Of a stretch of 64,000 nucleotides of DNA, positions 10,051 through 64,000 are shown piece by piece. Made by a program: the position numbers and the translations under genes. The notes beneath the pieces are model-generated. The model ran no database searches, was not told the DNA's origin, and saw only the letters and a list, made by a program, of their open reading frames with translations. The first letter of the stretch is position 1. The number at the start of each line of letters is the position of its first letter. Origin of the DNA: Phyllobates terribilis (taxonomy: Eukaryota); assembly GCF_046119375.1 (NCBI RefSeq), contig NW_027362916.1, positions 1 to 64,000 of the forward strand, read 5' to 3'.

Positions 10051-10464
10051 CCACTGTTGGTCAATACACAGAAAAAAAACGCTCCTACTCACCTTCCTAG
10101 CACTCACCATGCTGTGCGGCGTCCACATCTGAAGCTGGCAGCTGATTTTGGTTGATTTTGACAGGAGTGCATAACGTCACTGCCATGCGCCCCCGGCAGC
10201 CTCTGATTGGCCAGCAGCATGTATTGCGGAGCACGGATCTGGCAAGTTTTTGCACTGCAATACACTTCAGCTGAATGTGTGTCCGAAGATACACATTCAG
10301 CTGAAATAGGGGCTGGCGCCGGCGAGCCCCTTATCCGCCGGGTACGTTACGCCCCTGATTTTGATGTTCTATTGTATACCTGGCACGAGCCAATATATTG
10401 TGATGACTTCACTGTTATATACCACCAGGAGCCCTTACATTATAGTGTCTTTAACAGTGAAACG

Positions 10465-12392: not shown

Positions 12393-12430
12393 TCAACCCC
12401 GCCACCACATATATGGCTGTTGTGTGCGCA

Positions 12431-14650: not shown

Positions 14651-17166
14651 TGTGACGGATCAGCTCTCGGGTAGGCGCAGTTTCACAGAGGAATGCAGCC
14701 TGCAGGTTCAAAAAGAAACTGGTGGCTTATTAAATGTCCATAAACCAACCAGGAAAACAAAACATAACAGCCTTTTTCTGGCACAAAAAGGTATAACAGA
14801 AAAAAACTCAAAATAACCCGTCCATATGCAGCACGGCTTCAGCCGTTTAAATGTAGTGCTTTTCTCTGCCTCCAGCAGACTCTGAGCAGCGCATGCAAGG
14901 TCTGCTCACCTTGCACAACACACAGCACAATGAGACAGGTGCAGCTGTCTTAAATCAGGCCTTCCAAGACCTGGACTGGTGGTAAGTGAGCAGCTGTTCC
15001 CACTCCCAACTTTTTCAGCTGCTCGTAAAACTCCGCCCTTTAATCCGGGTCCATTAACTCCCTCTCAGCACTATGTGTGCTGGAGCCTGCTTCTTCGGGT
15101 CCTACATAACCGAAGCTTGGTAATTCGGGGACACATACCTCCCGTCGACGACTTGTGCGGTAGCAACCTTGCACACCCCACCTCTGCCCAAAGCCGGGGG
15201 CTTGGCACCTTCTGCCACCATACAATAGACCCTTGACAGGGCATCAGCATTCCCATGTTGTTTCCCAGGCCTATGCTCTACCTGGAAACTAATATCTTGT
15301 AGGGCTAGGAACCATCTAGTTACTCGGGCATTGTTCCCCTTCTTTTCTCGCATTCACCTCAATGGGTCATGGTCTGACGCTAACCTGAAACTTCTACCTA
15401 ACAGGTAATATCTCAAAGTGTCCAACGTCCACTTGATGGCTAAACATTCTCAGTTTCCAACTGAGGTACATTAGAGGGTGTTCCTCTCCGTTAATCTCCT
15501 GGGACAAGAATGCTCCCAGCCTGACATCCGATGCATCCATCTGGACCACAAACTCTTTTGAGAAGTTGGGAGCCACCAAGACTGGCTGTTTACAGAGGGC
15601 CAGATTCAATTCCTGGAAGGCCACTTCAGCTTCCGTGGACCACTTGGCCATAGCTGACTTCGTCCCTTTCAGCAGATCCGTCTGCTATCAGGGCAAAGTT
15701 AGGGACAAATCTTCGATAGTAGACCACGATGCCTAGAAATGCCCTGACCTGCTTCTTCAAGAGGGGCTGTGGCAAGTTCAGGATCGCCTCGACCTTATTT
15801 ATTTGTGGTTTTATTTCCCCTCTACCAACCACGTAGCCCAGATACTTGGCTTCCTCAATCTCCATGGCACATTTCTTCGGGTTGATGGTAAAGCCCGCCT
15901 TCCTTAAAGCATCAAGTATGGCTTGAACTTTTCTAAGAATACTTTCCCAGTCCTGGCTGAATATGACAATGTCATCTAGGTAGGCCGCTGCATACTTTTT
16001 GTGGGGTGCTAAGATCCGGTCCATGGATCTCTGGAAGGTGGCCGGAGCTCCCTGCAACCCAAACGCCATCCTGACTTATTGATAACCGTCTGGCATCGAG
16101 AAGGCCGTCTTCTCCTTGGCCTCTTTGGACAGGGGAATTTGCCAATATTCTTTGGTGAGGTCTAGGGTGGTGATGTACTGAGTGGGTCCTAGCCTTTCGA
16201 TAAGCTCATCTTCAAGACCTCGTTCAGCTTCCTATAGTTATTGCAAAACCGCGATTCTCCATCTGGTTTCGGCACTAAGACTATAGGACTGGACCAGACA
16301 CTCTTGGACTCCTCAATGACTCCAAGGTTCAGGATCCGCTTCAACTCTTTCGAGATCACCTCTCTGCGGGCCTAAAAAGGTTTTAGGTTGACACGAACAT
16401 GAGGCTCTGTGAGTACTTCATGCTCTATGACCCGAGTGAGTCCTGGCAATTCTGAAAACAGGTCTTTATTTCGCTGTAGAAACTCTTTGCACTGTTGCTT
16501 TTGGGCACGTGACAGCGACTCTGGCACCTTGACCTCTTTCACATCAGCGTCAGGCTCAGTCACTAAACACGAAGCTTCCACGGGCTCCCTATCTCGCTAT
16601 GGCTTAATCAAGTTGACGTGGTACACCTGGTAGGGTTTCCTTCTCTCTGGCTGGTGGAGTTAATAGTTGACCTCACTAACCTTTTCAACTATTTCATAGG
16701 GGCCCTGCCACTTCACCAGGAAGTTGCTCTCCACTGTAGGTACCAGCACCAGTACCCGATCCCTAGGGTTGAAGTGTCTCACTCGTGCCGATCTATTGTA
16801 CACCCTAGATTGCGCCTCTTGTGCTTGGAGGAGGTGCTCTTTCACGATGGGCATCACCATGGCAATTCTCTCTTGCATTTGGGCCATGTGTTCGATTACA
16901 CTCCGGTAGGGTGTAGACTCCGCCTCCCAAGTCTCCTTTGCCACATCCAGGAGCCCTTGGGGGTGTTGGCCATCCAACAGCTCAAAAGGGGAGAATCCAG
17001 TAGAGGACTGTGGTACCCCTCTGATGGAGAAGAGACGGTACGGAAGTAGGCAGTCCCTGTCTCGGCCGTCCTTCTCTACGATCTTCTTTAACATGTGTGC
17101 TGGAGCCTGCTTCTCCGGGTCCTACATCAACGAAGCTTGGTACTTCGGGGTCACATACCTCCCGTC
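14651..17166 (-). mobile_element. Gmr1-like Gypsy LTR retrotransposon, internally deleted (IN C-term, RT, RNase H, 3' LTR)
   Basis: Minus-strand order: integrase tail (PQSSTGFSPFELL..KWQGPY, 16660-17094), then RT (FGLQGAPATFQR..AYLDDIVIF, 15626-16069), then RNase H (QMDASDVRLG..WFLALQD..HGNADALSR). 3' LTR 14651-15174 has TG..CA ends and is preceded by a purine-rich tract. A 5'-LTR piece at 17093-17166 matches 15073-15145. Confidence 0.85.
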
Positions 17167-17169
17167 CAT

Positions 17170-18908
17170 GACCTCCGTACACGCGCGGCTCCGCTCCGTA
17201 CACCTCGCACACGCGCGGCTCCGCTGCGTACACCTCGCACACGCGCGGCTCCGCTGCGTACACCTCGTTGACGCGCGGCTCCGCTCCGCACACCTCGCAC
17301 ACGCGCGGCTCCGCTGCGTACACCTCGCACACGCGCGGCTCCGCTGCGTACACCTCGCACACGCGCGGCTCCACTCCGTACACCTCGCACACGCGCGGCT
17401 CCGCTGCATACACCTCGTACACGCGCGGCACCGCTCCGTACACCTCGTACACGCGCGGCTCCGCTCCGTACACCTCGTACAAACGCGGCTCCGCTCCGTA
17501 CACCTCGTACACACGCGGCTCCGCTCCGTACACCTCGTACACACGCGGCTCCGCTCAGTACACCTCGTAGACACACGCGGCTCCGCTCAGTACACCTCGT
17601 AGACACACGCGGCTCCGCTCAGTACACCTCGTAGACACACGCGGCTCCGCTCCGTACACCTCGTAGACACACGCGGCTCCTCTCCGTACACCTCGCACAC
17701 GCGCGGCTCCGCACACACGCTGTTCCTTTCTGTACTCCTTGGATGCGCGGCTCCGCTCCGTACACCTCATGGACGCGTGGCTCCGCCCCGCACACCTCGT
17801 GGACGCGCGGCTCCGCTCCGCACACCTTGTACACGCGCGGCTCCGCTCCGTACACCACGCACACGCGCGGCTCCGCTCCGTACACCTCGCACACGCGCGG
17901 CTCCGCTCCGTACACCTCGCACACGCGCGGCTCTTCTCCGTACACCTCGCACACGCGCGGCTCTTCTCCGTACACCTCGCACACGCGCGGCTCTTCTCCG
18001 TACACCTCGCACACGCGCGGCTCTTCTCCGTACACCTCGCACACGCGCGGCTCCTCTCCGTACACCTCGAACACGCGCGGCTCCTCTCCGTACACCTCGT
18101 ACACGGGCGGCTCCGCTCCGTACACCTCGAACAGACGCGGCTCCGCTCCGTACGCCTCGTACACGCGCGGCTCCGCTCCGTACGCCTCGTACACGCGCGG
18201 CTCCGCTCCGTACGCCTCGTACACGCGCGGCTCCGCTCCGTACGCCTCGTACACGCGCGGCTCCGCTCCGTACGCCTCGTACACGCGCGGCTCCGCTCCG
18301 TACGCCTCGTACACGCGCGGCTCCGCTCCGTACGCCTCGTACACGCGCGGCTCCGCTCCGTACGCCTCGTACACGCGCGGCTCCGCTCCGCACGCCTCGT
18401 ACACGCGCGGCTCCGCTCCGCACGCCTCGTACACGCGCGGCTCCGCTCCGCACGCCTCGTACACGCGCGGCTCCGCTCCGCACGCCTCGTACACGCGCGG
18501 CTCCGCTCCGTACGCCTCGTACACACGGGGCTCCGCTCCGTACACCTCGTACACACGCGGCTCCGCTCCGTACACCTCGTACACACGCGGCTCCGCTCCG
18601 TACACCTCGTACACACGCGGCTCCGCTCCGTACACCTCGTACACACGCGGCTCTGCTCCGTACACCTCGTACACACGCGGCTCCTCTCCGTACACCTCGT
18701 ACACACGGGGCTCCGCTCCGTACACCTCGTACACACGGCTCTGCTACATCCACACTGTAAATCCCTCCTGACCCCACACATAAACTTCAGCTCATCCACC
18801 ACCATGACAACCAGCACAGCAGAGTCCTGCATCCACTGAGGCCCCTGATCATGTGACCCCTGACTCTTCCCCTCCTGTGACCTCCTGTGACCTCATCACA
18901 GCTCCTGT
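17170..18908 (-). repeat. 30-bp CpG-rich minisatellite (~50 copies) plus the ~165-bp head, inverted relative to 12431-12965
   Basis: Unit CACGCGCGGCTCCGCTCCGTACACCTCGTA; the head at 18738-18908 is the reverse complement of 12431-12590. Confidence 0.95.
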
Positions 18909-19661
18909 ACAGGACCCCTTTACTGCCCCCCACAGTGTAATGCCCCCATTATGCCCCTTATACAGTATGTATGATGCCCCCACACAGTGTAATTCCCCCA
19001 TTATGCCCCTTATGCAGGATGTATTATGTCCCACACAGTGTAATGCCCCATTATGCCCCTTATGCAGGATGTATTATGCCCCCACACAGTGTAATGCCCC
19101 CATTATGCCCCTTATGCAGTACGTATGATGCCCACACACAGTGTAATGCCCCCATTATGCCCCTTATGCAGGATGTATGATGCCCCCACACAGTGTAATG
19201 CCCCCATTATGCCTCTTATGCAGGATGTATGATGCCCCCCACACAGTGTAATGCCCCTTATGCAGGATGTATGATGCCCCCACAGTGTAATGCCCCTTAT
19301 GCAGTATGTATGATGCCCCCACACAGTGTAATGCCCCCATTATGCCCCTTATGCAGTACGTATGATGCCCACACACAATGTAATGCACCCATTATGCCCC
19401 TTATGCAGTATGTATGATGCCCCCACAGTGTAATGCCCCTTATGCAGTATGTATGATGCCCCCACACAGTGAAATGCCCCCATTATGCCCCTTATACTGT
19501 TTATATGATGCCCCCACACAGTGTAATGCCCCCATTATGCCCCTTATGTAGTATGTATGATGCCCCCACACAGCGTAATACCTCTATTATGCCCCTTATG
19601 CAAGATGTATGATGCCCCCACACAGTGTAATGCCCCCATTATGCCCCTTATGCAGGATGTA

Positions 19662-21301
19662 CAGTTAGGTCCATATATATTTGGACAAAGAGAACATTTT
19701 TCTAATTTTGGTTCTAGACATTACCACAATGAATTTTAAACAAAACAATTTAGATGCAGTTGAATTTCAGACTTTCAGCTTTCATTTGAGGGTATCCACA
19801 TTAAAATTGGATGAAGGGTTTAGGAGTTTCAACTCCTTAACATGTGCCACCCTGTTTTTAAAAGGGACCAAAATTAATTGGACAGATTAAATAATTGTAA
19901 ATAAAATGTTAATTTCTAGTACTTGGTTGAAAACCCTTTGTTGGCAATGACTGCGTGAAGTCTTGAACTCATGGACATCACGAGACGCGGTGTTTCCTCC
20001 TTTTTGATGCTCTGCCAGGCCTTCACTGCGGTGGTTTTCAGTTGCTGTTTGTTTGTGGGCCTTTCTGTCTGAAGTTTAGTTTTTAACAAGTGAAATGCAT
20101 GCTCAATTGGGTTGAGATCAGGTGACTGACTTGGCCATTCAAGAATATTCCACTTCTTTGCTTTAATAAACTCCTGGGTTGCTTTGGCTTTAAGTTTTGG
20201 GTCATTGTCCATCTGTAGTATGAAACGACGACCAGTCAGTTTGGCTGCATTTGGCTGGATCTGAGCACACAGTATGGCTCTGAATACATCAGAGTACATT
20301 CGGCTGCTTCTGTCCTGTGTCACATCATCAATAAACACTAGTGACCCAGTGCCATTGGCAGCCATGCATGCCCAAGCCATCACACTGCCTCCGCCGTGTT
20401 TTACAGATGATGTGGTATTCTTTGGATCATGAGCTGTACCACGCCTTCGCCATACTTTTCTCTTTCCATCATTCTGGTATAGGTTGATCTTGGTTTCATC
20501 TGTCCAAAGAATGTTCTTCCAGAACTGTGCTGGCTTTTTTGGATGTTCTTTTAGCAAAGTCTGGTGTAGCCTTTTTATTCTTGATGCTTATGAGTGGCTT
20601 GCACCGTGCAGTGAACCCTCTGTATTTACTTTCATGCAGTCTTCTCTTTATGGTAGATTTGGATATTGATACGCCTACCTCCTGGAGAGTGTTGTTCACT
20701 TGGTTGGCTGTTGTGAAAGGGTTTCTCTTCACCATGGAGATTATTCTGCGATCATCCACCACTGTTGTCTTCCGTGGGCGCCCAGGTCTTTTTGCATTGA
20801 TGAGTTCACCAGTGCTTTCTTTCTTTCTCAGGATGTACCAAACTGTAGATTTTGCCACTCCTAATATTGTAGCAATTTCTCGAATGGGTTTTTTCTGTTT
20901 TTGCAGCTTAAGGATGGCTTGTTTCACCTGCATGGAGAGCTCATTTGACCGCATGTTTACTTCACAGCAAAACCTTCCAAATGCAAGCACCACACCTCAA
21001 ATCAACTCCAGGCCTTTTATCTGCTTAATTGAGAATGACATAACGAAGGTGTTGCCCACACCTGTCTATGAAATAGCCTTGGAGTCAATTGTCCAATTAA
21101 TTTTGGTCCCTTTAAAAACAGGGTGGCACATGTTAAGGAGCTGAAACTCCTAAACCCTTCATCCAATTTTAATCTGGATACCCTCAAATGAAAGTCTGAA
21201 CTTCAACTGCATCTGAATTGTTTTGTTTAAAATTCATTGTGGTAATGTCTAGAACCAAAATTACAGAAATGTCTCTGTCCAAATATATATGGACCTAACT
21301 G
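19662..21301 (-). mobile_element. Full-length Tc1/mariner (DD34E) transposon, 1640 bp
   Basis: TA|CAGTTAGGTCCATATATATTTGGACA ... TGTCCAAATATATATGGACCTAACTG|TA; ~210-bp TIRs; TA target duplication. Confidence 0.97.
19916..20954 (-). pseudogene. Tc1 transposase with one frameshift (~20540)
   Basis: MRSNELSMQVKQAI (paired-like HTH), GRPRKTT, then LWTDETK / MDNDPK / SPDLNPIEH in the second frame. Confidence 0.92.
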
Positions 21302-32800: not shown

Positions 32801-35740
32801 TTTTAGTTTCTGGCAATATGCTTCCAGCTTTAGTAGGGTGTGGTGCTTTCCAGTTAGCAGATTACTCCAGCTGGACAGCACACACACCCATACTGCCAGA
32901 CTGGATGGTACTACTGGTCCCAGCAACCCTAATCTTAGTGGCTGGACAGAGCCTGCGCCGCCCAGAGCTTCTGGTTCTGACGTCTCCTCCATCACCAGCG
33001 CCACCTGCAGGATGAATAAGGCGGCTCCTGGTGACCGAAGCAGATGTTGCAGGAGCAGATCCCAGAGGAGATGGGACACACCATTTGCAGAAGCCCTAAT
33101 GTGACCAAATTGCAGAGAACCAGAACAGTAGAAATCCCCATAAAGTGACTCCATTTTGGAAATTATAACCCTCAGTGAAGTAATCTATAGGAGTAGTGAC
33201 TATTGTGACTCCACAGGCACTTTCCGGAAATTAGCACACAGTGGATGTTGGAGAGTGAAAATTACAAATATACCATTTCATTACCCAACACATAGTGCCC
33301 AGATTGTGCTCCAGGAGACACACACCGTAAATTAAGTGGGTTCTTCTCACTATAGTAATACCAAATACATGGATGCTGAGTGTTGTTTGGGCGCACTGCA
33401 AGGCTCAGAAGTGAGGGGGAGATCTGACTTTGGGAGAGCGGATATTGCTGGATTGGTTTATGGAAGCCATGTTGCTTTTCAAGAGCCTTTGAGCCACTAA
33501 TAATGTGGAAACCTCTGGTTTTCCATTGACAGATAATGACCCTGACTGGGGACTTGTTTTTTGTGAGATGAGTAGAAGTTATTATTGATATTATTTTTGC
33601 CTACATAACATTGTTTGATGGCTTCTTATTCCATATTTGGGAAGCAGAATGAACAGTTGGACACCACGCTCTACTGGTTCATCCTATGAGGTTTTCTATT
33701 AGACTGTGAACTGTCATTCTGTCAATAACTTCCCATTTCTACAGATATTTTAAGTACAATTAACACAAGAATCTCATAGAAAAATAAATAAAGATTGCAT
33801 ACCACTTCTAAATCAATCTAAATACACACATCCCTGGGCTACATGCTAATCCAGGAAAATGAAGAGATATATGCTCAAGTTTAAATATTCCTCTATATTT
33901 TAGATTTGTGTCTAATAAAATAGATTTTTAAACTTGAGCATATATCTCTTCATTTTCCTGGATTAGCATGTAGCCCAGGGATGTGTTTGTTTAGACATTT
34001 TAAGTAGAAATGTTCAAAAATATAAATTTCAAGGATATTTTATTCAAAATTAATAATTGTTTTTTTTTCTTGGCAGATGACTGTACCAAAAGATCAGAGG
34101 GACTGGAGATTTTTAAATCAGACGATCTTAAGATCCCACAGGATACAATTGAAGTGAATGCCATTACTCCAGATATACCATCATCCCTTCACAGCAAACA
34201 TCAATCATCTGATCCTATGAAACAGGTCCTGTCTTCTGATTCATTACCGACTGCTAAGGAAAATAAAAAAAAAAAAATGAGCATTACAAAACGAACTGCT
34301 CCTAAAGCAAAGAAGACATTTTCAGGTTCAGAATATGGAAATATTTTTACCCTCTCAAAGTCTATTCTTAAACATCAAAAAATACACACAGCGGACAATA
34401 GATTTTCTTGTTCCATATGTGGGAGATGTTTTAACCAGAAATCAGATTTTAATATACACCAGAGAACTCACACAGGGGAGAAGCCTTTTTCATGTTCAGA
34501 ATGTGGGAAATGTTTCAACCGGAAAGCACGTCTTCATATCCACCAGAGAACCCACACAGGAGAGAAGCCTTTTTCATGTTCAGAATGTGGGTTATGTTCC
34601 ATCGAGAAAGCACATCTTAATAACCACCAGAGAACCCACACAGGGGAGAAGCCTTTTTCCTGTTCAGAATGTGGGAAATGGTTTAACCAGAGATCAGATT
34701 TGATTAATCACCAGAGAATTCACACAGGGGTGAAGCCTTTCTCATGTTCAGAATGTGGGAAATGTTTTAACCAGAAATCACATCTTGTTAAACACCAGAG
34801 AATCCACACAGGGGAGAAGCCTTTTTCATGTTCAGAATGTGGGAAATGTTTTAAACAGAAATCGCATCTTATCCTACACCAGAGAACTCACACAGGGGAT
34901 AAGCCTTTTTCATGCTCAGAATGTGGGAAATGTTTTAACCAGAGATCAGATTTGATTAATCACCAGAGAATTCACACAGGGGTGAAGCCTTTTTCATGTT
35001 CAGAATGTGGGAAATGTTTTAAACAGAAATCGCATCTTATCCTACACCAGAGAACTCACACAGGGGATAAGCCTTTTTCATGCTCAGAATGTGGGAAATG
35101 TTTTAACCATAAATCACATCTTGTTAAACACCAGAGAACTCACACAGGGGAGAAGCCTTTTTCATGTTCAGAATGTGGGAAATGTTTTAACCATAAATCA
35201 CATCTTGTTAAACACCAGAGAATTCACACAGGGGTGAAGCCTTTTTCATGTTCAGAATGTGGGAAATGTTTTAAACAGAAATCGCATCTTATCCTACACC
35301 AGAGAACTCACACAGGGGATAAGCCTTTTTCATGCTCAGAATGTGGGAAATGTTTTAACCATAAATCACATCTTGTTAAACACCAGAGAACTCACACAGG
35401 GGAGAAGCCTTTTTCATGTTCAGAATGTGGGAAATGTTTTAACCATAAATCACATCTTGTTAAACACCAGAGAATTCACACAGGGGTGAAGCCTTTTTCA
35501 TGTTCAGAATGTGGGAAATGTTTTAAACAGAAATCGCATCTTATCCTACACCAGAGAACTCACACAGGGGAGAAGCCTTTTTCATGTTCAGAATGTGGGA
35601 AAGGTTTTATACAGCAATCAAATCTTATCAACCATCACAGAACTCACACAGGGGAGAAGCCTTTTTCATGTTCAGAATGTGTTAAATGTTTTAGCCATAA
35701 ATCCGCTTTGGTTAAGCACCAGAGAACCCACACAGAGTAG
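29841..35740 (+). CDS. C2H2 zinc-finger protein (oocyte/gastrula ZNF, XlCOF/XlCGF-like) with FAX-type boxes and a KRAB-A-like box; 749 aa, 16 intact fingers
   Basis: Exons 29841-29933, 30048-30227, 30310-30433, 30517-30614, 30812-30902, 34077-35740; all GT-AG with consistent phases (0,0,1,0,1); total 2250 nt, open. Exon 3 [27 protein letters not shown] resembles KRAB-A; last exon has [14 protein letters not shown] repeats. The start codon and any upstream exon are uncertain (acceptor at 29783). Confidence 0.9.
32106..32804. repeat. Long intronic inverted repeat (~300-bp arms, ~100-bp spacer)
   Basis: 32106-32417 is approximately the reverse complement of 32517-32804 (e.g. CCCACATAAAGATGGCGGCTACAC / GTGTAGCCGCCATCTTTATGTGGG). 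Confidence 0.9.
33826..33986. repeat. Perfect 60-bp inverted repeat with 41-bp spacer
   Basis: 33826-33885 is the exact reverse complement of 33927-33986. Confidence 0.95.
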
Positions 35741-35789
35741 AAGCCTTTTTCATATTCTTTTTTTTTCAATCCAATAAATTTGAGTATTT

Positions 35790-36945
35790 TTTTCATTAGT
35801 TTTTTTTTTTTGGACAAATCAAGAAACCAGTACATACAATAATATATTAACATACCATAGGGATGACATAGATGCATCTCTCCTATATATCCTTTCAGCT
35901 TGCCCATTACCGTCTGATAACTTGCAGTTACTATATCTTACAATTAACATTCCACATTCTTGAAATCTCTTATATAACCATAATATTGTAATAAACATTA
36001 TAATCCTATACACATATAGGTGTGCTATATTACCCATACCACATGTTAAGGAATTCCAATGCACATCATAATGAAACATTAGACCTCGCCAATACCCCCT
36101 TCCCCCATAAGTCAATGTCTCTCCAACAATAACCCCCGTGATGGCATTCCAGGTGTATCCAACCATAAGCCCCATATTTTCTCAAATGTATTCATTGAAT
36201 TTTATTTTTTACATAACACCTTTTCTAATCTGATAATATTATTTATCCTATTTTTGAGTTCACTAATTTCTGGAGGTGAGGGGTTAATCCATTTGGATGC
36301 AATATGTTTCCTAGCTTGAAATAAAATATGTGAAATCCCTATTGAAATTGGGTCAAATTCCATATCATCTTCTAATATACCTAATAGACATTTTTTGGGT
36401 CTGGTTGAATATCTGTTTTATACACCCTCTTTATAATAGACAGAACTCCTTTCCAGTATTTACCTAACTCCCGGCATTCCCATAGCGTATGTAATAGGCC
36501 CGCAGCATCCATGTTACATCTTGGACATTCAGCAGCAGTCCGGTATCCTATGTTACATAGGAATCTAGGCGTCTTATATTTCCTGTGTATTAATATGATC
36601 TGGGAAAATCTCTGCGCCTCATATAAAGATAATTGGGGTACCAGTTCTAATACCGCTCTCCATTGATCCTCAGAAATTGGACCTATATCTCCATCCATTT
36701 TTGGAAATACGACCCTTAGTATTTCCCTTCTCTAATACCAACTTAACAAAAGTATTATTTTCTACCCAAAAGGGCGTCCATCTTGATTGTGCATTAAATG
36801 AATGCCGAAACTGTAGATATTTATACAATTGTTTATTTGTCAACACAAATCCCCCCTTTAATTCATCAAAGGACTTAAGTATTTTTAGAAAAGTGGAGGG
36901 CACCACCTATATAGTATCCAATGTTGTTCAACCCGTCACATACCA
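35790..36945 (-). mobile_element. L1/Tx1-clade LINE 3' fragment
   Basis: RFSQIILIHRKYKTPRFL..AAECPRCNMDAAGLLHTLWECRELGKYW is the ORF2 C-terminal cysteine-rich domain; upstream LYKYLQFRH. Confidence 0.8.
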
Positions 36946-51309: not shown

Positions 51310-52503
51310 TGCCCATTTTGATGCCCAGAACCCATTTGGGCCAGGCTGGAGTGACCTGAATTTGATGTGGGCCATCACTATGTATGTAGTGGTGGTGTGA
51401 GATTAGTGGCCCAAAGTCATTTAACCCCTGAAAAACACCAGTTACTTATTCAAATCTGTGAAAAGTGGCTATTTGCCAGCTTTGATGGCCATTTTGATGA
51501 TCAGAACCCTTTTGGGCCAGGCTGGAGTGACCTGAATTTGATGTGGGCCATCATACTGTTTGTAGTGGCGGTGTGAGATCAGTATCTCAAAGTAATTTAA
51601 CCCCTGAAAAACACCAGTTACTTATTTGAATCTGTGAAAAGTGGCTATTTGCCCGCTTTAGTGGCCATTTTGATGCCCAGATCCCATTTGAGCCAGTCTG
51701 GAGTGACCTAGTTTTGATGTGGGCCATCACTATGTATGAAATACTGGTATGAGATCAGTGGCCCAAAGTCATTTAACCCCTGAAAAACACCAGTTACTTA
51801 TTCAAATCTGTGAAAAGTGGCTATTTGCCAGCTTTCATGCCCATTTTGATGCCCAGAATCCATTTAGACCAGGCTGGAGGAAAATGAATTTGATGCGGGC
51901 CATTACTACATATGTAGTGGTGGTGTGAGATCAGTGGCTCAACGTCATTTAACCCCTGAAAAACACCAGTTACTTATTCAAATGTGTGAAAAGTGGCTAT
52001 TTGCCTGCTTTGATGCCCATTTTAATGCCCAGAGCCCATTTGGGCCAAGCTGGAGTGGCCTTATTTTGATGTGGGCCATCACTATGTATGAAATACTAGT
52101 ATGAGATCAGTGGCCCAAAGTCATTTAACTAATGAAAAACACCAGTTACTTATTCAAATCTGTGAAAAGTGGCAAATTGACAGCTTTGATGCCCATTTTG
52201 ATGCCCAGAACCCATTTGGGCCAGGCTGGAGGAAAATGAATTTGATGCGGGCCATTACTACATAAGTAGTGGCAGTGTGAGATCAGTGGCTCAACATCAT
52301 TTAACCCCTGAAAAACACCAGTTACTTATTCAAATGTGTGAAAAGTGGCTATTTGCCTGCTTTGATGCCCATTTTAATGCCCAGAGCCCATTTGGGCCAG
52401 GCTGGAGTGGCCTTATTTTTTTAATGTGGGCCATCACTATGTATGAAATACTAGTATGAGATCAATGGCCCAAAGTCATTTAACTAATGAAAAACACCAG
52501 TTA
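51310..52503. repeat. ~176-bp satellite, about 7 copies
   Basis: AAAACACCAGTTA recurs at ~51433, 51608, 51783, 51960, 52136, 52312, 52491; the array ends at the Gypsy LTR. Confidence 0.9.
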
Positions 52504-52696
52504 TGTAGCATCGGCGTCTCTGCCTCCTGCTAGGCAGAGACGCCTCCCTCTCACCTTCCTGTTCAGCGTGCGGCGTCCTCCTGCGCTCCTTCCCTCGCTG
52601 CTGCCGGCGCGCGCTCCTTCCCGGGCACTGTGCTTAGGGCGCGCGCGCTCCCCCTCTCTTGAAGGGGCCGCGCGCGTCGTCCTAAGGAGTCCCCGG

Positions 52697-52759
52697 CCAA
52701 TTGCCGGAGGACTTCCCATATATAAGGCACCTCCTCCAAAATGGAGGTGCCCGAGCAAA
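52697..52759 (+). promoter_or_regulatory. LTR promoter: CCAAT (~52697), TATA (52719-52725), predicted TSS at ~52749
   Basis: GGCCAATT, TATATAA and a 9-bp stem GGCACCTCC/GGAGGTGCC; GCCCGAGCAAA starts 30 nt after the TATA. Confidence 0.7.
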
Positions 52760-53584
52760 GTTGTTTGCACTGTGTCTCACCTGTGCTTCAGCCCTCAGGT
52801 TCCGCTGCTAGCCTGACTCCTCGTCCAGCCTGCCAGCCTGTTACCTGCCTTGTCTGTCAGACCGCTCACCTGGGAGCGTCCACCAGTTACCTGCCTGTTA
52901 CCTGCCTCGTCTGTCAGACCGCTCACCTGGGAGCGTCCACCAGTTACCTGACTGTTCCTGCCTCGTCTGTCAGACCGCTCACCTGGGATCATCCACCAGT
53001 TACCTGACTGTTACCTGCCTCGTCTGTCAGACCGCTCACCTGGGAGCGCCCGCCAGTTACCTGCCTGTTACCTGCCTCGTCTGTCTGCCCGCTCACCTGG
53101 GAGCACCCGCCTGTTACCTGCTGTGTCCGTCAGCCTGCTCACCTGGGAGTGCCCACCAGTTACCTGCCAGATGCCCGCCTCGTCTGTCTGCCCGCTCACC
53201 TGGGAGCACCTGCCTGTTTCCTGCCAGCCTGCCTGGAGACCCTGCCGTCACTTGCTGTGACCATCTTCCTGGTAAACCTAAAGACTGTTACCTGCCCTGC
53301 TTTCTCGAACTGTGACCACCTGCCAGCTACCAGAGACTTCCGCCTGCTTGCCGTGTCCATCCGCCATACTGGCCAGTCCCAGCCATCTGACCGGTGGGAG
53401 CCACCTGCTCTCTTACAAGGTCGTCCCCAGAGTAGCACCTGGTCCCTCAGCCCGGATCATCCCTGGTCACGGTGTCGTTAGCTGCCGTACGACCAGGGTC
53501 GGTTCGGGTGGATACTTAGTCACGCCCCTCTGGGTCCCTACTTGCACCTCGGCACAGAGGTTCCACCACCCGGCCCCGTAACAG

Positions 53585-53595
53585 TTTGCTCGGGC
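53585..53595 (+). promoter_or_regulatory. Self-priming PBS (non-tRNA)
   Basis: TTTGCTCGGGC lies 1 nt after the LTR end and is the exact reverse complement of 52749-52759. Confidence 0.8.
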
Positions 53596-53596
53596 C

Positions 53597-54553
53597 ATGG
53601 AACCCGGTGGCACCCAAGCTCCCTCGCTCTCTGACCTATACCAGGAAGTCTCCCGTCAGAGATCCCAGCAGGAGTCCATCCTGAACCATCTGCGGAATGT
53701 CCACTCCCGCCTGGACACACTGACTGCTCCACCTACAACCACCGCTAGTTGCACGACTCGCACCCCGGCAGCGCCGCTGCCCATCAATACCATGGCATCC
53801 TGCTCTGGACTCCGGCTTTCTGCACCTCCTCGTTTCGGAGGTGACCCCGCTCAAGCTCGGGGCTTCATAAACCAGTGCACCCTGCACTTTGAACTCTTGG
53901 CACATCACTTTACCACCGACCGGGCCAAAGTGGCTTTCATAATGTCCCATCTCACTGGACAGGCACTGGCTTGGCTAAATCCCCTGTGGGAGAGAGGGGA
54001 TCCCCTAGTATCCAACTTGTCAGCTTTCCTCACTGCTTTCCGGAAAGTCTTCAATGATCCGGGATGAAAGACCTCGTCAGCCTCCTCTCTGCTACGTCTC
54101 CGCCAAGGGAGTCTCACCGTAGGCCAATATGCCATACGGTTCCGTACCCTCGCTTCTGAACTTGCCTGGGATAACGAGGCCCTGCTGTCCGTCTTCTGGG
54201 AGGGTCTTTCCATTCGGATTAAAGTAGAACTTGCCGGTCGGGACATCCCTCCCACCCTGGACGACCTAGTGTCACTTGCTACCCGGATTGACATCCGGTT
54301 CCAGGAACGTACCAAGGAAACCACCCGTGAGAGAAGGTTTCCCCGCCTTGCTCCTAACTTCCAGAGACCTGTCTCTTCTTCAGTCACTCCCCGGGCGCAC
54401 TCACCCGAGCCCATGCAGGTCGACCAGACCAAGTTGGTCAAATCCCACCAGGAGTCACGCCGGGCCTAGGGGAGCTGTTTCTATTGTGGCAGCAAGGAGC
54501 ACCTGATTCGTTCCTGCCCGGAGAGGCCGGGAAACGCCGGTGTCTAGGATCGC
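53597..54553 (+). pseudogene. Gag (retrotransposon gag, CCHC knuckle) with two in-frame stops
   Basis: PPRFGGDPAQARGFINQC..KVAFIMSHLTGQALAW..LRQGSLTVGQYAIRFRTLA..CFYCGSKEHLIRSC; TGA at 54065-54067 and TAG at 54467-54469. Confidence 0.9.
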
Positions 54554-57500
54554 TCGGAGAGGTCGTCCTAGACAAAAGTAAGTCCTCTCCCTCCCTGACT
54601 TTGTCTGTCTCTCTCTCCTGGGGAGAGGATCGGCACTTTGAAAACGCTCACCTGGACTCTGGAGCGGCTGGGAACCTCATCTCCCAGTCCTTAGTTGAGA
54701 GATACCGTATTCCCACAAAGCTTCTCACTGAACATTTGTCAGTTGCCTCCGTGGATGGTAAACTCCTTCCAGTACCCATCCTGCTCGTCACTGAACCCTT
54801 AACTCTGCAGGTGGGAATGCTGCACTCTGAGAAGATCTCCTTCCATGTGCTATCTGGACTCTCTCACTCCCTGTTGCTAGGTCTACCTTGGCTCCAGACA
54901 CATGAACCCGTATTGAACTCGCGATCTGGCGAAGTACTCCGGTGGGGTCCAGACTGCCATAGGACCTGCCTGGTTCCGGTCCGCCCAGCTCGCCTTCCGC
55001 CTACTCCAGCTAATCTTCCCGGTCTCCCGGCTCCATACTGGCCCTATGCGGACGTCTTCGGTAAAAAGGAGTCAGAGACGTTGCCACCCCATAGGCCATA
55101 TGACTGCCCGATCGACCTGGTACCTGGTGCCACTCCTCCCCGTGGGCGTATCTACCCGTTGTCTGCGGCCGAAACCCGGGCCATGTCTGAATACATTGAG
55201 GAGAATCTGGCTAGGGGATTTATCCGAAAATCTACCCCCCCGGCTGGAGCCGGATTCTTCTTTGTCAAAAAGAAAGACGGCTCGCTACGTCCCTGTATTG
55301 ACTACAGAGGACTCAATCTAATCACTATAAAAAACAAATACCCCCTGCCGCTCATCTCCGAATTGTTTGACCTTCTCAAGGGCGCCAGGATCTTCTCCAA
55401 GCTGGATCTAAGAGGGGCATATAACTTGGTCCGTATCCGTCAAGGAGACGAGTGGAAGACAGCATTCAATACCCGGGACGGTCACTATGAGTACCTTGCG
55501 ATGCCCTTTGGTCTCTGTAACGCCCCCGCTGTCTTTCAAGAGCTGGTCAACGACATCTTCCGTGACCTCTTGTACTCCTGCGTAGTGGTTTACCTGGACG
55601 ATATCTTGGTCTTCTCTCCGGATCTCCCCACACACCGGAGGGATGTTCGTCAGGTCCTGCTTAGGCTCCGGCAGAACCACCTCTATGCCAAATACGAGAA
55701 GTGCCTCTTCGACCAGACCTCCCTTCCATTCTTGGGCTATGTTATCTCCCAGACAGGTCTACAAATGGATCCGGAGAAGCTCTCTTCTGTTCTAAAATGG
55801 CCCCGTCCAGAAGGTTTGAAGGCGATACAGCGATTCCTGGGCTTCGCTAATTACTATCGTCTTTTCATCCCACACTTCTCATCCCGGACTGCTCCCATAT
55901 CTGTGCTTACCCGTAAGGGGGCAAATCCCAAGGTATGGTCACCTGAAGCCGAGGAGGCCTTCCTTTCCTTAAAGAGAGCCTTCGCCTCTGCCCCCGTCCT
56001 GCATCGTCCGGACTATAATAAACAATTCTACCTGGAGGTTGATGCCTCCTCCTCCGGAGCCGGAGCGGTACTCACCCAAAAATCTTCTACCGGGAGAATG
56101 GTAACCTGCGGCTTCTTTTCCAAAATCTTCTCCTCGTCTGAGAGCAACTACTCCATAGGAGACCGTGATTTGCTAGCCATCAAATTGGCACTGGAGGAGT
56201 GGCGCTATCTGCTAGAAGGGGCTCTCTACCCGGTAATCATCTACACGGATCACAAAAACCTGGCATATCTCCAAAATGCCCAGAGACTCAATCCTCGCCA
56301 GGCCCGGTGGTCGTTGTTTTTTGCCCGTTTCGACTTCATTCTTCATTTCCGCCCAGCGGACAAGAACGTCAAAGCTGATGCCTTGTCCCGGTCCTCCCTG
56401 TCCTCCGATCTAGAGGAGGAGCCTACGCACATCATTGACTCCTCCAAGGTGATGAATGTGGCCCCCTTGGATCTGACTCGTCTTCCACCCGGTAAGACAT
56501 TTGTAGCAGTATCCGATCGGGAGAGGGTTCTTCGCTGGGGACATTTTTCTAAACTAGCTGGCCATGCTGGCCAAAAGAAGACCTTCCAGCTCATTTCCCG
56601 GCATTACTGGTGGGCCTACCTTGCGTAAGGACGTTGTAGACTTCGTCGCGGCCTGTTCATCCTGTGCCCGTAACAAAGTTCCCAGACATGTACCAGCTGG
56701 CCATCTCTTGCCCCTGCCCGTACCTGCTGCTCCATGGCAGCACATTGCTATGGACTTTATCACCGATCTTCCTGTTTCTGCCGGTTGTACAGTCATTTGG
56801 GTGGTCGTTGACCGCTTTTCTAGAATGGCCCACTTCATTCCCCTGCCTGGCCTCCCATCTGCACCCGAGCTGGCTAAAGACTTTATCCGCCATATCTTCC
56901 GTCTCCATGGCCTACCCCTCCACATCGTGTCGGATCGTGGGGTTCAGTTCACCTCACGCTTCAGGAGAGCCACATGTAAGCTGCTAGACGTCACCCTGGA
57001 TTTCTCCTCCGCTTACCACCCACAGTCCAATGGTCAAGTGGAGCGAATCAATCAGATCCTGACCAGCTACCTCCGGCACTTCGTTAATGCCCACCATTCG
57101 GATTGGGTGGATCTCCTACCATGGGCCGAGTTCTCTTATAATAATCATGAGAGCGAATCCTCTTCCCAATCCCCGTTCTTTATTGTCAATGGCCAGTACC
57201 CCCGGATTCCAGTTCCTGTCTCCGCTTCTGTGGACAACCCTGCCGCAGAGTCTCTTGTCAGCGAGTTTTCTACTATTTGGGAGAATACCAGGTCCGCTCT
57301 TCTTCTGTCCTCCGAGCGGATGAAGAGATATGCTGATAAGAGACGTCTGGATCCACCTCAATTCCGTCCGGGAGACAAGGTTTGGCTCTCTTCCAAATAT
57401 GTACGGCTCAAAGTACCCTCCTACAAGTTGGGCCCTCGGTTCATCGGACCCTTCGAAGTTCTCAGGCAAATTAACCTAGTGGCCTACAAATTAAAACTCC

Positions 57501-57597
57501 CAGCCACCCTACGCATTCCCAACTCCTTCCACGTATCCCTCCTCAAACCCATTGTCCTTAACACTTTTTCCGACAATCCAGGTACTCCTCCTACTCC
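54529..57597 (+). pseudogene. Pol (PR-RT-RH-IN) entered by -1 frameshift at GGGAAAC; one frameshift near 56615; cut by the ERV before the chromodomain
   Basis: ORFs 54484-56628 and 56564-57742; the last ~47 codons of the second ORF are ERV LTR read-through. Confidence 0.9.
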
Positions 57598-58115
57598 TGT
57601 CAGGGTAAAAGAGAATATATATATTTGTAACTTTTATACTTTTGTAACTTTTATACGCTTTTTTGCTAATGTACTAACCACCATTTTGTGTCATATAACA
57701 ATAAGCTTTCCTTGCTACGTAATTACTCAAATCGAAACTTAAACTAAGACATTTCCAGTGTTGCCAAGACATTTCAGAGAAATGAAACAAGATTATAAGC
57801 TGACGGCTGCAATTTCTGCCCAGAGACTGAGATAAGGAGATGTGGACCAATCAGGAGTGGCCAGACATTGGAATTTCATGGTTTACCCCGCCCCGGACAA
57901 CCCCTTTTCCCTCCCATTATGTAGTGTATTTAGATTTGTGCATGTAAAAATAAATTCAGAACAATGCTGAGGAGGTTGACTGTAGTAGTCTTCTGAGCAT
58001 GCTCTGAGCTTGAACCAGCTTGTTGCCTGACTCATTCTTTGAATGGTTGACCCATGCTCATAGTTTGAATTTGGAGTGACTGGAGGACGAGTGGAATGTC
58101 ATCACGACCCCCACA
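57598..58115 (+). mobile_element. ERV 5' LTR (518 bp)
   Basis: TGTCAGGG ... CCCCCACA; begins abruptly inside the Gypsy integrase tail and is followed by a tRNA PBS. Confidence 0.85.
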
Positions 58116-58117
58116 AA

Positions 58118-58135
58118 TGGCGCCCAACGTGGGGC
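58118..58135 (+). promoter_or_regulatory. Primer-binding site, tRNA-Lys1,2
   Basis: TGGCGCCCAACGTGGGGC, the canonical Lys1,2 PBS, 2 nt after the LTR. Confidence 0.92.
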
Positions 58136-58899
58136 GTGGCTAGCGGTACGCCGCCCTCCCGGACCCATATTGCTGACTTCCCTGGTGGTGACCGCGGTGG
58201 CTGAATTTGAGGCCTGATCAACCTCCATCGAACACGGTAAGTTGAGATGTATTTTATATGTCTCACTTGCCTGTGTGTCAGCCGCAGCGGTTTCTGTGGG
58301 GTTGTTAGGTTGGATCTGGGTGGGTGACCGGTCGAGTGGTGAGACCTTGGGCGTCCCGCACCACGTCCTGAACCAGCAAGTGTTAAACCGAGTGACGTCG
58401 CATGCCTGCGCGTGCTCGTGTGCACACCACCTCCTCCTCCCCCGGTCACTGTACTTTTCTTAGATAGCTGCCTCCCGTAACTGATAGTCGAAGTTTCAAA
58501 GCATTCCTGAATTGTAGTGTAAGGTGTTGTGCTGTAAGAATCTGTGACGAATTGAGAGGTGTACTCTTCGTCTAATACAGAGACTGCTGTTAAATCAAGG
58601 TTAGGAAACAGTGTATTGAGGTGTACTCTACACTGACGGGTGGTACCGTGGTAGGAAAGGAGATAGATTGAGAGGTGACTCTCTATCTCATCGGTGTATT
58701 GAGGGGTACTCTACACTGACGGGTGGTGCCGTAGTAGGAAGGAAGACGAATTGAGGTGTACTCTTCGTCTTATACAGAGAAACCTCATAAGGAGGGGTTC
58801 TGCTGTCAGGGTGCCGTGGTGAGTCGTACTGTAAAGTCGCCATTCAAAGTTAGGGAAGGGACAGATGGAGGCGTACTCTCTGTCTTAGTGTATTGAGGA

Positions 58900-60830
58900 G
58901 TACTCTACACTGATGAGTGGCGACCTGTCGGCTGCACCAGTGATCTGAGTCGCGACAGATCATTGCATTCTATAAGAAAATGTTGTGTATATTCAAATTT
59001 GAAAGATTTCGTAAGTTGCGGAATGCTGCTGTAGGAGTTAAGCCAATTAGTGGAGTTACGGGAAGGCAAGAAGGCAAGAAGAATGTTAGGAATTTGTAGA
59101 ACATGATAAGCTTATGAATGTGTTACACAAAAGTTGGGAAAGTTGGGTGAGGATTTCTGCAAGCACATCTTAGAGTAGATGATGCAGGGGGGGGACAGAG
59201 AATGCCGAGCCTTTGTTCGGATACATGAAAGCTGCAGAATGTGATGTGTTATGTGACCCTAAATTGGCCGTAACCCCGTTGATGCTTGTCACTACACCGA
59301 GCCTTCAGCCACCGCCCTATAATGGTGCCAACAACAAATCACCGGAGGGGTGGACGTGTCGGGTGTGTGGAGAGCAAAACCCACTCTGGGCGGGCCGCCC
59401 ATGGCACGATGCCCAGCCTGCCCCCAAGAACAATCCCACCCCCACTCCCACCTCCTCCCTCCAACGGCCATCTTACTACACCTTTTCCTGCCTCCAAGAA
59501 TAATCCCACTCCCACCTCCTCCCTCCCACGGCCATCTTGCTACACCTCTTACTTGTTGTGGGAGGCCCGGAAAGCCCCAATCCAGCCTATATCCACTACT
59601 AGATCCATCCGGTGCATATTACCAGCCACCAGCACAGGTGGAAAAGCCCGTAGTCCCAGAGTACCCATCTGAAGTTAATGTGACACCCTCTGCTCCAGTT
59701 CACGATGCTGAGACGCTTCCCCTGTTTCCTATGGGAGTCACCCACAACCCTGGGGATATCCTCCTCAACTCCCCAGAATTTCAGGCCAGACTGCTCTCCC
59801 TCCGTCAACATACTGTTACTCAAGACGATACGGAGCCAGATGAGGGATGGGCTCAAGATACCCCCCCCTTTACCCCATACGTCTCCTATGGCATCCTCCA
59901 CCCCACATTCATTACCCGTACTCCGGCCCTTGCTCCAAGCAACTGCTGAAAGAGCACCACCCCCCAGCCCCTCAGAAGTCTGGGACCCCTGCCGCTCCCG
60001 GAACCTAGTAGACCCATCAGGACGCCCTGTCACTCTGTCAATAGGCTATGGTGACATCCTTACACATCGGGTGGGGGCCATAGTCAACCCTGCAAACACC
60101 TGTATGAGCCATGTTGGAGGATTGGTTCGTAAAATTGCCCTTGCTGCTGGTTCTACTCTGGCTGCAGAATGCCAGGCTCACTTAGCCGAAAACGGAGAGC
60201 TTTCAAAAGGCCATGGATTCCACAAAAGCAGGATCCCTTAGTACGTATGAATCCGGCCTAGAATACATGAAACAGTTAAAAGCCTGGGCTCAGGATCGCT
60301 TGTCAGATCAAGCTGGGTCTGTACAAGATGTTCAACAAGACCCTGATGAATCTGTGGAAAGATATGCTGCAAGACTCAGCATGCATTTTGAGGATCTCGG
60401 ATACAGTTCTCACGTCAACACGCAGGCCGCCCTGTTGGTTCAGGCCCTAGTAGATGGCCTACAAGACGCTCTCAGAGATGAAGTCTTGAGAGTACGGCCC
60501 GAGATTCGTTCTTCTTCTTTCAACGACGCGGTGAACATCGTCAAAGCTTTCCAAAAATCAATGCTAAAAATGGAAAAGGATACTAAGCCAAAGAAGAAAG
60601 CCGCTCCTGCCATGATATATCAAGCTCAAGAAAGCTACCCACCCCTGGCAACCAACATGGAATCAAGTGGGTAATGGTTAAAGGCACAGGTGATGATACT
60701 CCTCCCACATATAGAAAACAAGACAGAAGAGATGACAAGGGATCATCTAGAAACAGAAGACAACCTCGTGATTCTGAAGGATGAATGTTATGTTGGGAGT
60801 GTGGTAGCCTTGACCACATCCTCAGAGACT
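58900..60830 (+). pseudogene. ERV gag, decayed: PPPY and PSAP late motifs, RanBP2-like Zn finger, partial macrodomain, capsid C-term, CCHC knuckle
   Basis: QPPPY (~59310); WTCRVCGEQN..ARCPAC; TPSAP (~59688); GDILTHRVGAIVNPAN..HVGGLVRKIALAAG (60050-60150); QDPDESVERYAARL; CWECGSLDHILRDC (~60790). Start position uncertain. Confidence 0.75.
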
Positions 60831-60839
60831 GTCACTTTA

Positions 60840-63800
60840 CAGGTGGACACTGGGGCGGCCACATCTGTCATTTCCTCTGCACAGCTCCCTCCTTCTGTAT
60901 CCCTATCACCGGATACCCTCACCTGTGTTGGGGTGGAAGGCCAACATATTTCCTCTCCACTCACAGTCCCTGTGTCTGCAGGACCGTTCACCGGAGTACT
61001 CACAAGATTCTTGGTCTCTGAAACTTGCCCTGTCAACCTGTTGGGAACCGATCTCTTAGAGCGGATGAAGGCAACAATTACCTTCGGAAACCATGGTATG
61101 GAGCTTCTTTTGCGGGACCCTCATTCCGAACAAGGGACTGAAGACCACTGTGTTCTTAAAGCCTTCCCTCTCATGATGATGACCATACAATCTCACAGTT
61201 CCCTCACTCTCTGTGGTCCAGTGGGCCAGAGGACGTCGGCCTCCTGCAGGTTCCCCCGGTCCGAGTACACCTCAAGCCTGGACACAGGTATCCACGGTTG
61301 CCACAATACCCCCTCAAGGCTGCACAAGAACAAAGCTTGGGTACCCAAATCGTTTCCCTCCTGGAATCAGGAGTCCTTGTCAGATGTGTATCTCCATGCA
61401 ATACACCCCTCTTTTCTGTAAAAAAGAAAACCGTTCCGGGAGAGTCTCCAAGATACCAGTTGGTTCAGGATCTCAGAGCCGTCAATGCAGCTACCATTTT
61501 AGAAACTCCAGTGGTACCCAACTCAAACACCCTCTTGTCTCAGCTGCCTCCAACGGCCACCTTGTTTACGGTGTTAGATCTGGCCAACGCCTTCTTCAGT
61601 ATACCCTTACATGAAGATTCGTGGTTTCTTTTTGCCTTCACCTTTCAAGGAGCACAGTTTACATGGACCAGGACTCCGCAGAGCCCAGAACTCTCCTAAC
61701 CAATTCACTCATTCTATGAAGTCTATTCTGAAGCCTTGGGTTCAAGAGAACCCTCAGGTCACCCTTCTACGGTATGTGGATGATCTTTTACTATGTGGCA
61801 CTGAAGAAAATTTGCCAGAGATGTCAGCATCCCTTCTCTGGTTTCTTCACTCAGCTAACTGTAAAGTCTCGAAAGGCGAAGTCCAATGGTGTCTGCCCAA
61901 GGTCATTTTCCTCGGACATTGTATATCACAAGGTGCTAGACATCTGACTGAAGAAAGAAAACAAGCCATCATGGATATCACCTTCCCAACCACCTACTCC
62001 GCTATGCAGACTTTCCTTGGCCTCATCACTTACTGCAGGCAATGGATCCCTGATGCCTCAAAGCTCATGCAACCTCTGTACGACTGTTTCAAGAATGAAG
62101 GCTCAGTTTGGCTTCATGCTGAAGATCCACGTGTTTCTCATCAACACAGACCGTTTTGACCGCCTTAAACAGGCTGTTGTCTCTGCCCCGGCCTTGGGCT
62201 TACCAGACAATACTCAGCCATTTCACGTTTTTTTGTCTCTGAATCGGAAGGTCATGCCTCTGGAGTTCTAGCACAACGCTATGATCATAAGTATCGGCCT
62301 TTGGGCTACTACTCAGCCCGCCTGGACCCTGTCGCCCGAACTGCCCTCATGTGCCTTAAGGCGGTCCACGCTGCTCACATCCTCCTTGACAAGTCAGCTG
62401 ATATCGTCCTTGGACATGATCTAGTTATACAGGCCGGCCATGATCTCTCAGCTGTTCTGCAACAAACATCTCCGAAACATCTCACCAACCAAAGACACCT
62501 GCGGCTGCAGTGTTCCCTATTGTTGCCCTCCAATATAACATTTACCAGATGTCTGACTATCAATCCTGCCACTTTGTTTCCACCTTCTAGGGGGGAAGGT
62601 GAAGAGGGTGAAGGTCCATTGGTGGAACCTCATGTTTGTATAAAAATTTTGCAGGAAGAGACTTCTGCTCCAGAGAATATGGTGGCACATCCGCTCGCAC
62701 ACCCTGCCTTGCACCTATGGACTGATGAATCCCGTTTTGCAGACCCTCAGGGGAAGTTCCACACGGGATATGCTGTCACAACAGACCTAACAGTTCTGAA
62801 GGCTGAAGCTCTACCACCATACATGTCTGCACAAGAAGCTGAACTTGTGGCTCTCACAGAGGCCTGCCACCTGGCAGCAGGAACAAAAGTGAATATATAT
62901 ATATACCGATTCCAGGTATGGACATGGAATTTGCAATGATTCTGGACTCTTGTGGAAGTCTAGAGGATTCATCACAGCTGCAGGTACACCAGTGAAACAT
63001 GCCTCATGGATTAAGGCCCTGATGAAGGCCCTGGAACTACCCATTCAGGTTGCTGTTATGAAGGTCAAGGCTCATGGAAGACTAGAATCCAGAGAAGCCA
63101 GGGACAACCACCTAACTGACCAAGCAGCCAAGACTGCAGCAGTGGAGAATGTGTCATCAAAGTGGCAGGAAAAGGAAGAAGGGATGGGGGAGACCCTGCA
63201 AACCGTAGCTGTGGCGCTCACTAGAGCAAGAGCCAAAGAACAGCCGGCGGAAGACCATACAAGTCCAGCGGAGACACGAGTGGAATCCAGGGGGGTTAGG
63301 ATGCCTGAAGAAAAATTGTGTGAGGAACAAAGGGAGACCCCCACTGAAGAAGTCAAGCAATGGAAAGCGGCAGGAGCTGTGCTGGCAGGTCGCAAAGATT
63401 CAAAGGTCAACTCGACTCTTTACCAAGTGGATGGGAAGCCTTGCTTGCCTAGACGCATGTACTCAGCTGTGGCAGCATGGGCTCACGGGCCTACACACAG
63501 AGGAAAGAATCAAGCCTTGGCATGTATCAAGAAACTGTACTTTGCACCCGGAATCTCTTCCACTGTGACTGCGTACTCAAAATCCTGCTCTGTCTGCGCT
63601 ACCTGCAACCCAACGTGTACGGCACGGGTCCCTCTCCAACACCTGGCTAAACCAGACTACCCTTGGCAGAGAATACAAGTCGACCATATCCAAATGCCTA
63701 AAGCAAGAAAATAGGAGTACGTTTTGGTAGCCGTGGATATGTTCTCAGCCTGGCCCGAGGCCTACCCGGTCGTCAACATGACTGCTAAAGTCACAGCCAA

Positions 63801-64000
63801 GAAACTGATCACCAAAATTGCCTACAGATTTGGAGTTCCCCAAGTCATAGAATCGGATCAAGGACCAGATTTCACAACAAATATCTACAAAGAACTCTGG
63901 AACATGTTGGGAACAGATTTGGGCCTCCACACTCCATACCATCCTGCCAGTTCAGGCAAAGTGGAAAGGATGAATTCCACACTCAAGACCCAGCTCTTGA
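60840..64000 (+). pseudogene. ERV pro-pol (PR-RT-tether-RNase H-IN), epsilon/gamma-like, decayed; runs off the window
   Basis: VDTGA..NLLGTDLL; PCNTPLF..YQLVQDLRAVN..VLDLANAFF..RYVDDLLL; LWTDESR..SAQEAEL; HGPTH..CSVCATC; QVDHI..ESDQG..GKVERMN. Several frameshifts and stops. Confidence 0.92.

Follow-up and report, generated by a model that had tools for sequence, protein, structure and literature searches.

Which RNA primes reverse transcription in an LTR retrotransposon that has only 13 nt between its 5′ LTR and its gag ATG? The question is raised by a locus in a 64,000-nt stretch of the Phyllobates terribilis genome (the window, meaning the whole stretch that was analyzed). An original prediction made from the window alone proposed priming by the element's own RNA 5′ end. 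We followed this up in the copy itself, in its relatives across the genome and in the literature.

The pairing site and its element

The LTR end at 53583, from which the 13-nt leader to the gag ATG is counted, was confirmed by the 3′ LTR of the same copy, beyond the window; the leader was correctly described as lacking a TGG primer binding site (PBS). The segment 53585–53595 is the exact reverse complement of 52749–52759 (GCCCGAGCAAA). This 11-nt complementarity proved as exact as claimed and is bounded on both sides, with no pairing beyond either end. It is the sole match of at least 7 nt between LTR and leader; elsewhere in an element's own LTR, the longest complements to its PBS reach only 5–8 nt. 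The claimed spacing also held, with the TATA box TATATAAG starting at 52719, 30 nt upstream of the predicted start at 52749. Chance complementarity might be suspected in a GC-rich LTR longer than 1 kb. However, a base-composition estimate gives an expectation of 4e-4 for the whole LTR and 5e-6 for a 15-nt interval following the TATA box, and all seven groups described below show the pairing again in other letters. These cross-family data refute chance, to which we assign next to no probability.

The copy is classed from its sequence as a decayed Tf1/sushi-type chromovirus. Its LTRs are of the TG...CA form, AGTTA borders the insertion on either side, and a G-rich PPT is present. The LTR start was corrected to 52504, and the 5′ and 3′ LTRs (the latter at L381:1440-2550) are 97.7% identical over ungapped columns (1054/1079). 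A Pfam scan returned the Ty3/gypsy order of gag, RT, RNase H and integrase. Among solved structures the best relatives of the RT are those of Ty3, and its closest named relatives are frog proteins, followed by teleost proteins. The C-terminal half of gag matches the PEG10 capsid (E 5e-7); sushi elements are relatives of PEG10/RTL1. A chromodomain (PF00385, E 1.8e-9) was found in the duplicate copy L142, and the window copy resumes past an inserted retrovirus with the same chromodomain stretch at 98% identity. Two gag stops, a break in the pol frame and the retroviral insertion leave the window copy immobile. Feature coordinates are collected in the table.

Features of the sushi-type element and its surroundings (window coordinates unless a locus is named)
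Feature	Position	Strand	Remarks
Target site duplication AGTTA, 5 bp, left copy	52499..52503	+	right-hand partner outside the window, L381:2551-2555
5′ LTR, TG...CA, 1080 bp	52504..53583	+	internal tandem repeats at about 52833-53234
TATA box TATATAAG	52719..52726	+	−30 from predicted start; by regex, 12/14 exemplars have a TATA-like element between −28 and −35
9-bp inverted repeat, 52726-52734 / 52743-52751	52726..52751	+	covers primer nt 1-3; window lineage, weakly sister family E
Predicted RNA 5′ end and self-primer	52749..52759	+	nt 1-10 (52749-52758) conserved; nt 11 pairs in the window's subfamily only
Possible third-stem 5′ arm ACTGT	52769..52773	+	partner 53581-53585 (LTR end and spacer); weak
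U5 arm GGTTCCA of U5:leader stem	53559..53565	+	pairs with TGGAACC 53598-53604, over gag start
Spacer GT, 2 nt, LTR end to conserved 10-nt PBS	53584..53585	+	
Predicted primer binding site, conserved 10-nt core	53586..53595	+	53585 makes 11 in the window copy; no TGG
gag: DUF4939/Ty3_capsid, Retrotrans_gag, PEG10-like C-terminal capsid half, CCHC finger	53597..54547	+	early stop codons (54065, 54467)
pol: protease motif (seen in sequence), RT, RNase H, integrase, SH3_Tf2-1	54530..57597	+	frame broken near 56.6 kb; ends just before chromodomain at the endogenous retrovirus
Later endogenous retrovirus inside the sushi element	57598..64000	+	runs on to L381:1233; outside the priming system

Several further features of the element and its surroundings were recorded. 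A slippery GGGAAAC (54529-54535) lies at the gag-pol junction with an inverted repeat after it, which we take to be a PEG10-type −1 frameshift signal; other families in the genome have a single long reading frame in place of this junction. The LTR of the window copy's family has no AATAAA-type signal, whereas in family E an AATAAA lies 31 nt short of the LTR end. Tandem units of ~52-57 bp (52833-53234) shift LTR length by several hundred bases among copies and hold CTGTTAC, complementary to the LTR end. A satellite block (about 52000-52503) surrounds the element, and L141 and L142 are further copies of the same insertion. With this insertion and its AGTTA flanks present on three contigs, the block is either duplicated or assembled as separate haplotypes. 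The inserted retrovirus (7.6 kb) is very young, with 518-bp LTRs that are 99.8% identical and a 4-bp target site duplication, CTCC, and is missing from L141 and L142. Its PBS is TGG-type (58118-58135), presumably of tRNA-Lys type, and its gag region 59950-60240 translates to ILTHRVGAIVNPAN...GGL, a stretch we assume to be macrodomain-like. Elsewhere, long minisatellite arrays occupy 10430-12450, 17033-18900, 18847-19720 and 34281-35850, with periods of 43, 30, 52 and 84 bp.

Compensatory change across the genome

Relatives were gathered by gag, SH3 and chromodomain searches, and long stretches were then fetched. At the junction, a first look gave about 2,500 candidates in the 10.6-Gb genome, of which 40 were scored. 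For the pairing itself, primer and PBS were located by flanking anchors blind to pairing. The 277 loci examined comprised 63 without an anchor and 214 with both; removal of 35 duplicates left 179 distinct copies. Complementarity was conserved across these, each of positions 1–10 forming a Watson-Crick pair in 163–173 of the 179. Outside this core the counts were 5/179 at position −1, 62/179 at position 11 and 15/179 at position 12. The core was perfect in 121 copies and carried one mismatch in 47, as post-insertion decay would predict. At least one non-Watson-Crick pair occurred in 58/179 copies, and at least six in six copies, which are misanchored or replaced. Two copies, L094 and L100, have in common a mismatched haplotype at a C-C position.

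Ten distinct primer/PBS 10-mers were found across seven groups. The primers are GCCCGAGCAA/GCCCGTGCAA/GCCTGTGCAA, GCGCTCAGAT/GCGCTCTGAT and GCTAGAGTAT/GCTTGAGTAT, slashes joining recurrent changes within a clade, together with GCCTGAGTAT, GCTTGTGTAT and GCTTCTGAAT. When primers and binding sites of different types were crossed, 0/90 pairs were perfect and the mean was 4.2 mismatches. The original prediction had called for a search for covariation between the 11-mers at the transcription start and the PBS; compensatory change was present at seven of the ten core positions (3–8 and 10, with two to four pair types each). Primer positions 1 (G), 2 (C) and 9 (A) are invariant. A pyrimidine at −1 and G at +1 were present in 14/14 exemplars. 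Primer and LTR end are separated by as little as 200 and as much as 835 nt, and a TATA-like element stays ~30 nt upstream of the primer. Exemplars were chosen among perfectly pairing copies, and the unbiased count is that of the 179-copy set only. Copy counts are not counts of independent events, because copies are related and exemplars were taken from perfect copies.

A second approach set LTR ends by each element's own LTR pair. Among 80 long loci, 56 were callable and 24 were not. Of the 56 elements with called ends, 44 carry a complement 10 nt long or longer. The 12 misses mostly reflect wrong boundaries or single mutations, and L273 has a PBS with three mismatches. A TGG at the PBS start was seen at 0/56 called LTR ends, nor in the window. 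The RT identity of the families to the window copy is about 66-99%, and the RT tree (44 stop-free rows, covering the groups other than the W subfamily variants and D) parts the groups by starred branches.

Priming could instead come from a small host RNA such as a tRNA half, the LTR match being a by-product. The invariant G1, C2 and A9 could reflect such a fixed primer, and half-tRNA priming is seen in copia elements (PMC6317226). Yet ten PBS types would require ten host RNAs, and the element's own LTR matches each of them at TATA+30. There is also no TGG, and the best of 20 distinct tRNA-Lys(TTT)-type sequences, the only tRNA types compared, has 2–4 mismatches. Within that comparison a host tRNA fragment as primer is very unlikely, and host RNA priming as a whole hardly more credible. 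An Rfam tRNA search gave 63 matches, and the 30 loci examined were tRNA-Lys(TTT) types only. These loci (L291-L320) include large tandem tRNA-Lys(TTT) gene arrays at ~1-kb spacing on two chromosomes. As a tRNA-primed control, 30 PF03732 loci were searched, and a PBS within 1500 nt was found in 0/30. All 150 of the top 150 PF03732 matches, as well as the top PF24626 matches, come from unplaced contigs of small size with numbers beyond roughly C2700 (L061, L062, L161-L220). The gag at these loci is, we presume, plant-element-like, and the contigs are possibly assembly contamination.

Covariation demonstrates pairing and not priming, and the same pairs might serve a leader structure for packaging, dimerization or translation control, with another primer in use. 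Translation control is suggested by the U5 stem described below, which lies over the gag ATG. Against this, the paired site sits precisely at the required PBS position, at a constant offset from the LTR end, and the 13-nt leader holds no other primer site. We regard a leader structure without priming as improbable, if somewhat less so than a host RNA primer.

Pairing, a fixed register to the TATA box and LTR end, compensatory change across families and the absence of a TGG site were all observed. The proposed self-priming is strongly supported by compensatory changes between families at a constant spacing from the TATA box. We put at about 0.9 the probability that the element's family primes reverse transcription with its own RNA 5′ end, the start and cleavage being predicted. 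The RNA would begin at 52749, as TATA spacing and the pyrimidine-G step suggest, and fold back so that nt 1–10 pair with the PBS lying 2 nt beyond the LTR end. By analogy with Tf1, the element's RNase H would cut just after this duplex and free the primer 3′ end. Extension would then copy the spacer and proceed to U5 and R, followed by transfer to the 3′ R, and the copied 2 nt would later be trimmed by integrase. A U5:leader stem may flank the primer duplex. Four contig runs over 52505-52830 were considered as RNA evidence and given no weight, contigs showing neither start nor strand.

Primer length and relation to known systems

The original prediction specified an 11-nt self-primer, and here the data departed from it. 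A search for 11 conserved base pairs in the 179 copies found that ten are kept, with position 11 Watson-Crick in only 62. In the exemplars this position is Watson-Crick in 3/14, G-U in 7/14 and mismatched in 4/14. It is a plain mismatch in the young copies L282, L286 and L136, whose LTR identities are 99.0%, 98.9% and 98.2%. Since position 11 is not conserved and its mismatches are fixed in subfamilies including young copies, the conserved PBS starts 2 nt past the CA of the LTR. The neighboring retrovirus PBS likewise has a 2-nt spacer, and integrases usually trim 2–3 nt (PMC2615609).

The same mechanism could use an 11-nt primer as in Tf1, or one of 12 nt, with wobble or mismatch tolerated at the 3′ end and a 1-nt gap between LTR and PBS. 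Counting G-U pairs, position 11 is matched in 122/179 copies and 10/14 exemplars, and the Tf1 cut falls between nt 11 and 12 (PMC7175516). T13 also faces the terminal A of the LTR in 169/179 copies and 14/14 exemplars, which would let the cut occur at any point of the 11–12 loop. This pair is a lead only and gives no covariation evidence, because both sides are invariant. The T-T, C-T and C-A mismatches fixed at position 11 in subfamilies with young copies would however make a bad 3′ end for RT, and a 2-nt spacer fits both integrase trimming (PMC2615609) and the spacer of the neighboring retrovirus. Within self-priming we therefore consider a primer of 11 or 12 nt rather unlikely and prefer one of 10 nt, with modest confidence. 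Ten pairs instead of eleven weakens the view that the element is identical to Tf1 and leaves intact the view that it works like Tf1.

To our knowledge, experimental proof of self-priming is limited to fission yeast, the vertebrate case being a sequence-based proposal. For Tf1, the 11-nt primer and its cleavage are established (PMC7175516, PMC4600332, PMC5341516), and the mechanism with its three-duplex structure has been described (PMC7175516, PMC4600332, bioRxiv 10.1101/2022.12.06.519325), all three duplexes being needed (bioRxiv 10.1101/2022.12.06.519325). Self-priming and the "pretzel" fold are ascribed to Tf1/sushi elements in general, those of vertebrates among them, with citation of Butler 2001 (PMC6317226, PMC4600332, bioRxiv 10.1101/2022.12.06.519325). 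As in Tf1/Tf2 of Schizosaccharomyces pombe, Tj1 and Tosmo1-3, the frog RNA 5′ end complements a PBS just past the LTR, a three-duplex pretzel may form and there is no tRNA-type PBS. Unlike the Tf1 primer of 11 nt, proven by experiment, the conserved frog duplex has 10 bp and is known from sequence alone; unlike in the Tf1/Tf2 group, frog primer and PBS are usually 400–830 nt apart. Self-priming has also been predicted for the plant Tcn1 and TAR lineages from an LTR complement of at least 10 bp located 0–5 bp past the LTR (PMC6317226); these differ in their hosts, and TAR belongs to the copia superfamily.

The closest likeness is to vertebrate Tf1/sushi chromoviruses (GyDB V-clade: sushi-ichi, Amn-ichi/ni/san). 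Shared traits are the chromodomain Ty3/gypsy layout, PEG10-like capsid, 5-bp target site duplication and GGGAAAC at the gag-pol junction, as well as the lack of a tRNA PBS, a PBS complementary to the LTR and candidate flanking stems. The window LTR ends loosely fit the Sushi motif TGTYANR/CNTNACA (PMC3601003). There is no difference in kind from these elements, and the mechanism is not new, being of the known Tf1/sushi type and already proposed for vertebrates (Butler 2001, as cited by later papers). In the main texts of the open-access literature we found no vertebrate covariation or start-site study of self-priming. What is added is comparative proof by covariation over ten types in one genome, together with a likely 10-nt register (10-bp core, 2-nt spacer). 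Ten covarying primer/PBS pairs in one genome turn the vertebrate proposal into strong comparative evidence, from which exact predictions result: a start at the G and a cut at +10 to +12.

Flanking stems and hairpin

The leader can pair, across the gag start, with a U5 stretch located 18–32 nt upstream of the LTR end. Its arms covary between families, AGACTCCT/AGGAGTCT changing to GGACTCCT/AGGAGTCC, with GGTTCCA/TGGAACC and GGTGTCCA/TGGATGCC as further pairs. Against shuffles, p 0.05 was reached in 9/15 exemplars; the window copy (p 0.063) was not significant, and arm pairs crossed between families can score equally well. For the possible third stem, at least five pairs were present in 13/15 copies of family A (controls 6/60), 6/6 of B (6/24), 59/90 of W (9/360) and 11/29 of E (0/116). 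Under a strict test it was not seen in families C, D and F.

Folding of the leader, which the original prediction had suggested, gave a divided result. From 52749, the primer:PBS duplex in the window copy has P near 1, and P exceeded 0.5 in only 5/14 exemplars; the latter counts against the duplex, although the thermodynamic model cannot form crossing stems. Taken together, the data allow the tentative view that vertebrate sushi elements have their own version of the Tf1 mechanism with a distinct register, one that genome sequence by itself would reveal. This register would combine a fixed 10-nt capped self-primer (G1-C2...A9), a retrovirus-like 2-nt spacer, a cut in a nt 11–12 loop closed by an invariant pair of U13 with the last A of the LTR, and a covarying U5 stem over the gag AUG that couples priming to translation shut-off.

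A 9-bp hairpin had also been placed between the TATA box and the start site. The hairpin is real, and its placement was inexact, the 3′ arm overlapping primer nt 1–3. It was significant by shuffle test only in the five W exemplars and in F, and in family E a single T-A pair is replaced by G-C. The group does not require this hairpin, nor does it belong to the mechanism in general. RNA starting at 52749 cannot form this hairpin at its 5′ end, and a start at 52727 loses pairs 1–2 only. The only place left for the U3 hairpin to form is the RNA's 3′ LTR copy; alternatively, the repeat could mirror a symmetric YY1-like site. A role in masking the 3′ LTR primer copy in all families was rejected, U3-primer duplexes beating shuffles in 0/15 exemplars. 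Inside the inverted repeat, at 52737-52747, lies CAAAATGGAGG, which we assume to be a YY1-like motif. The YY1-like motif (AAAATGGAGG, or AACATGGCGGC in family E loci such as L279) ends 1–2 nt before the predicted start, and this arrangement is confined to two sister groups.
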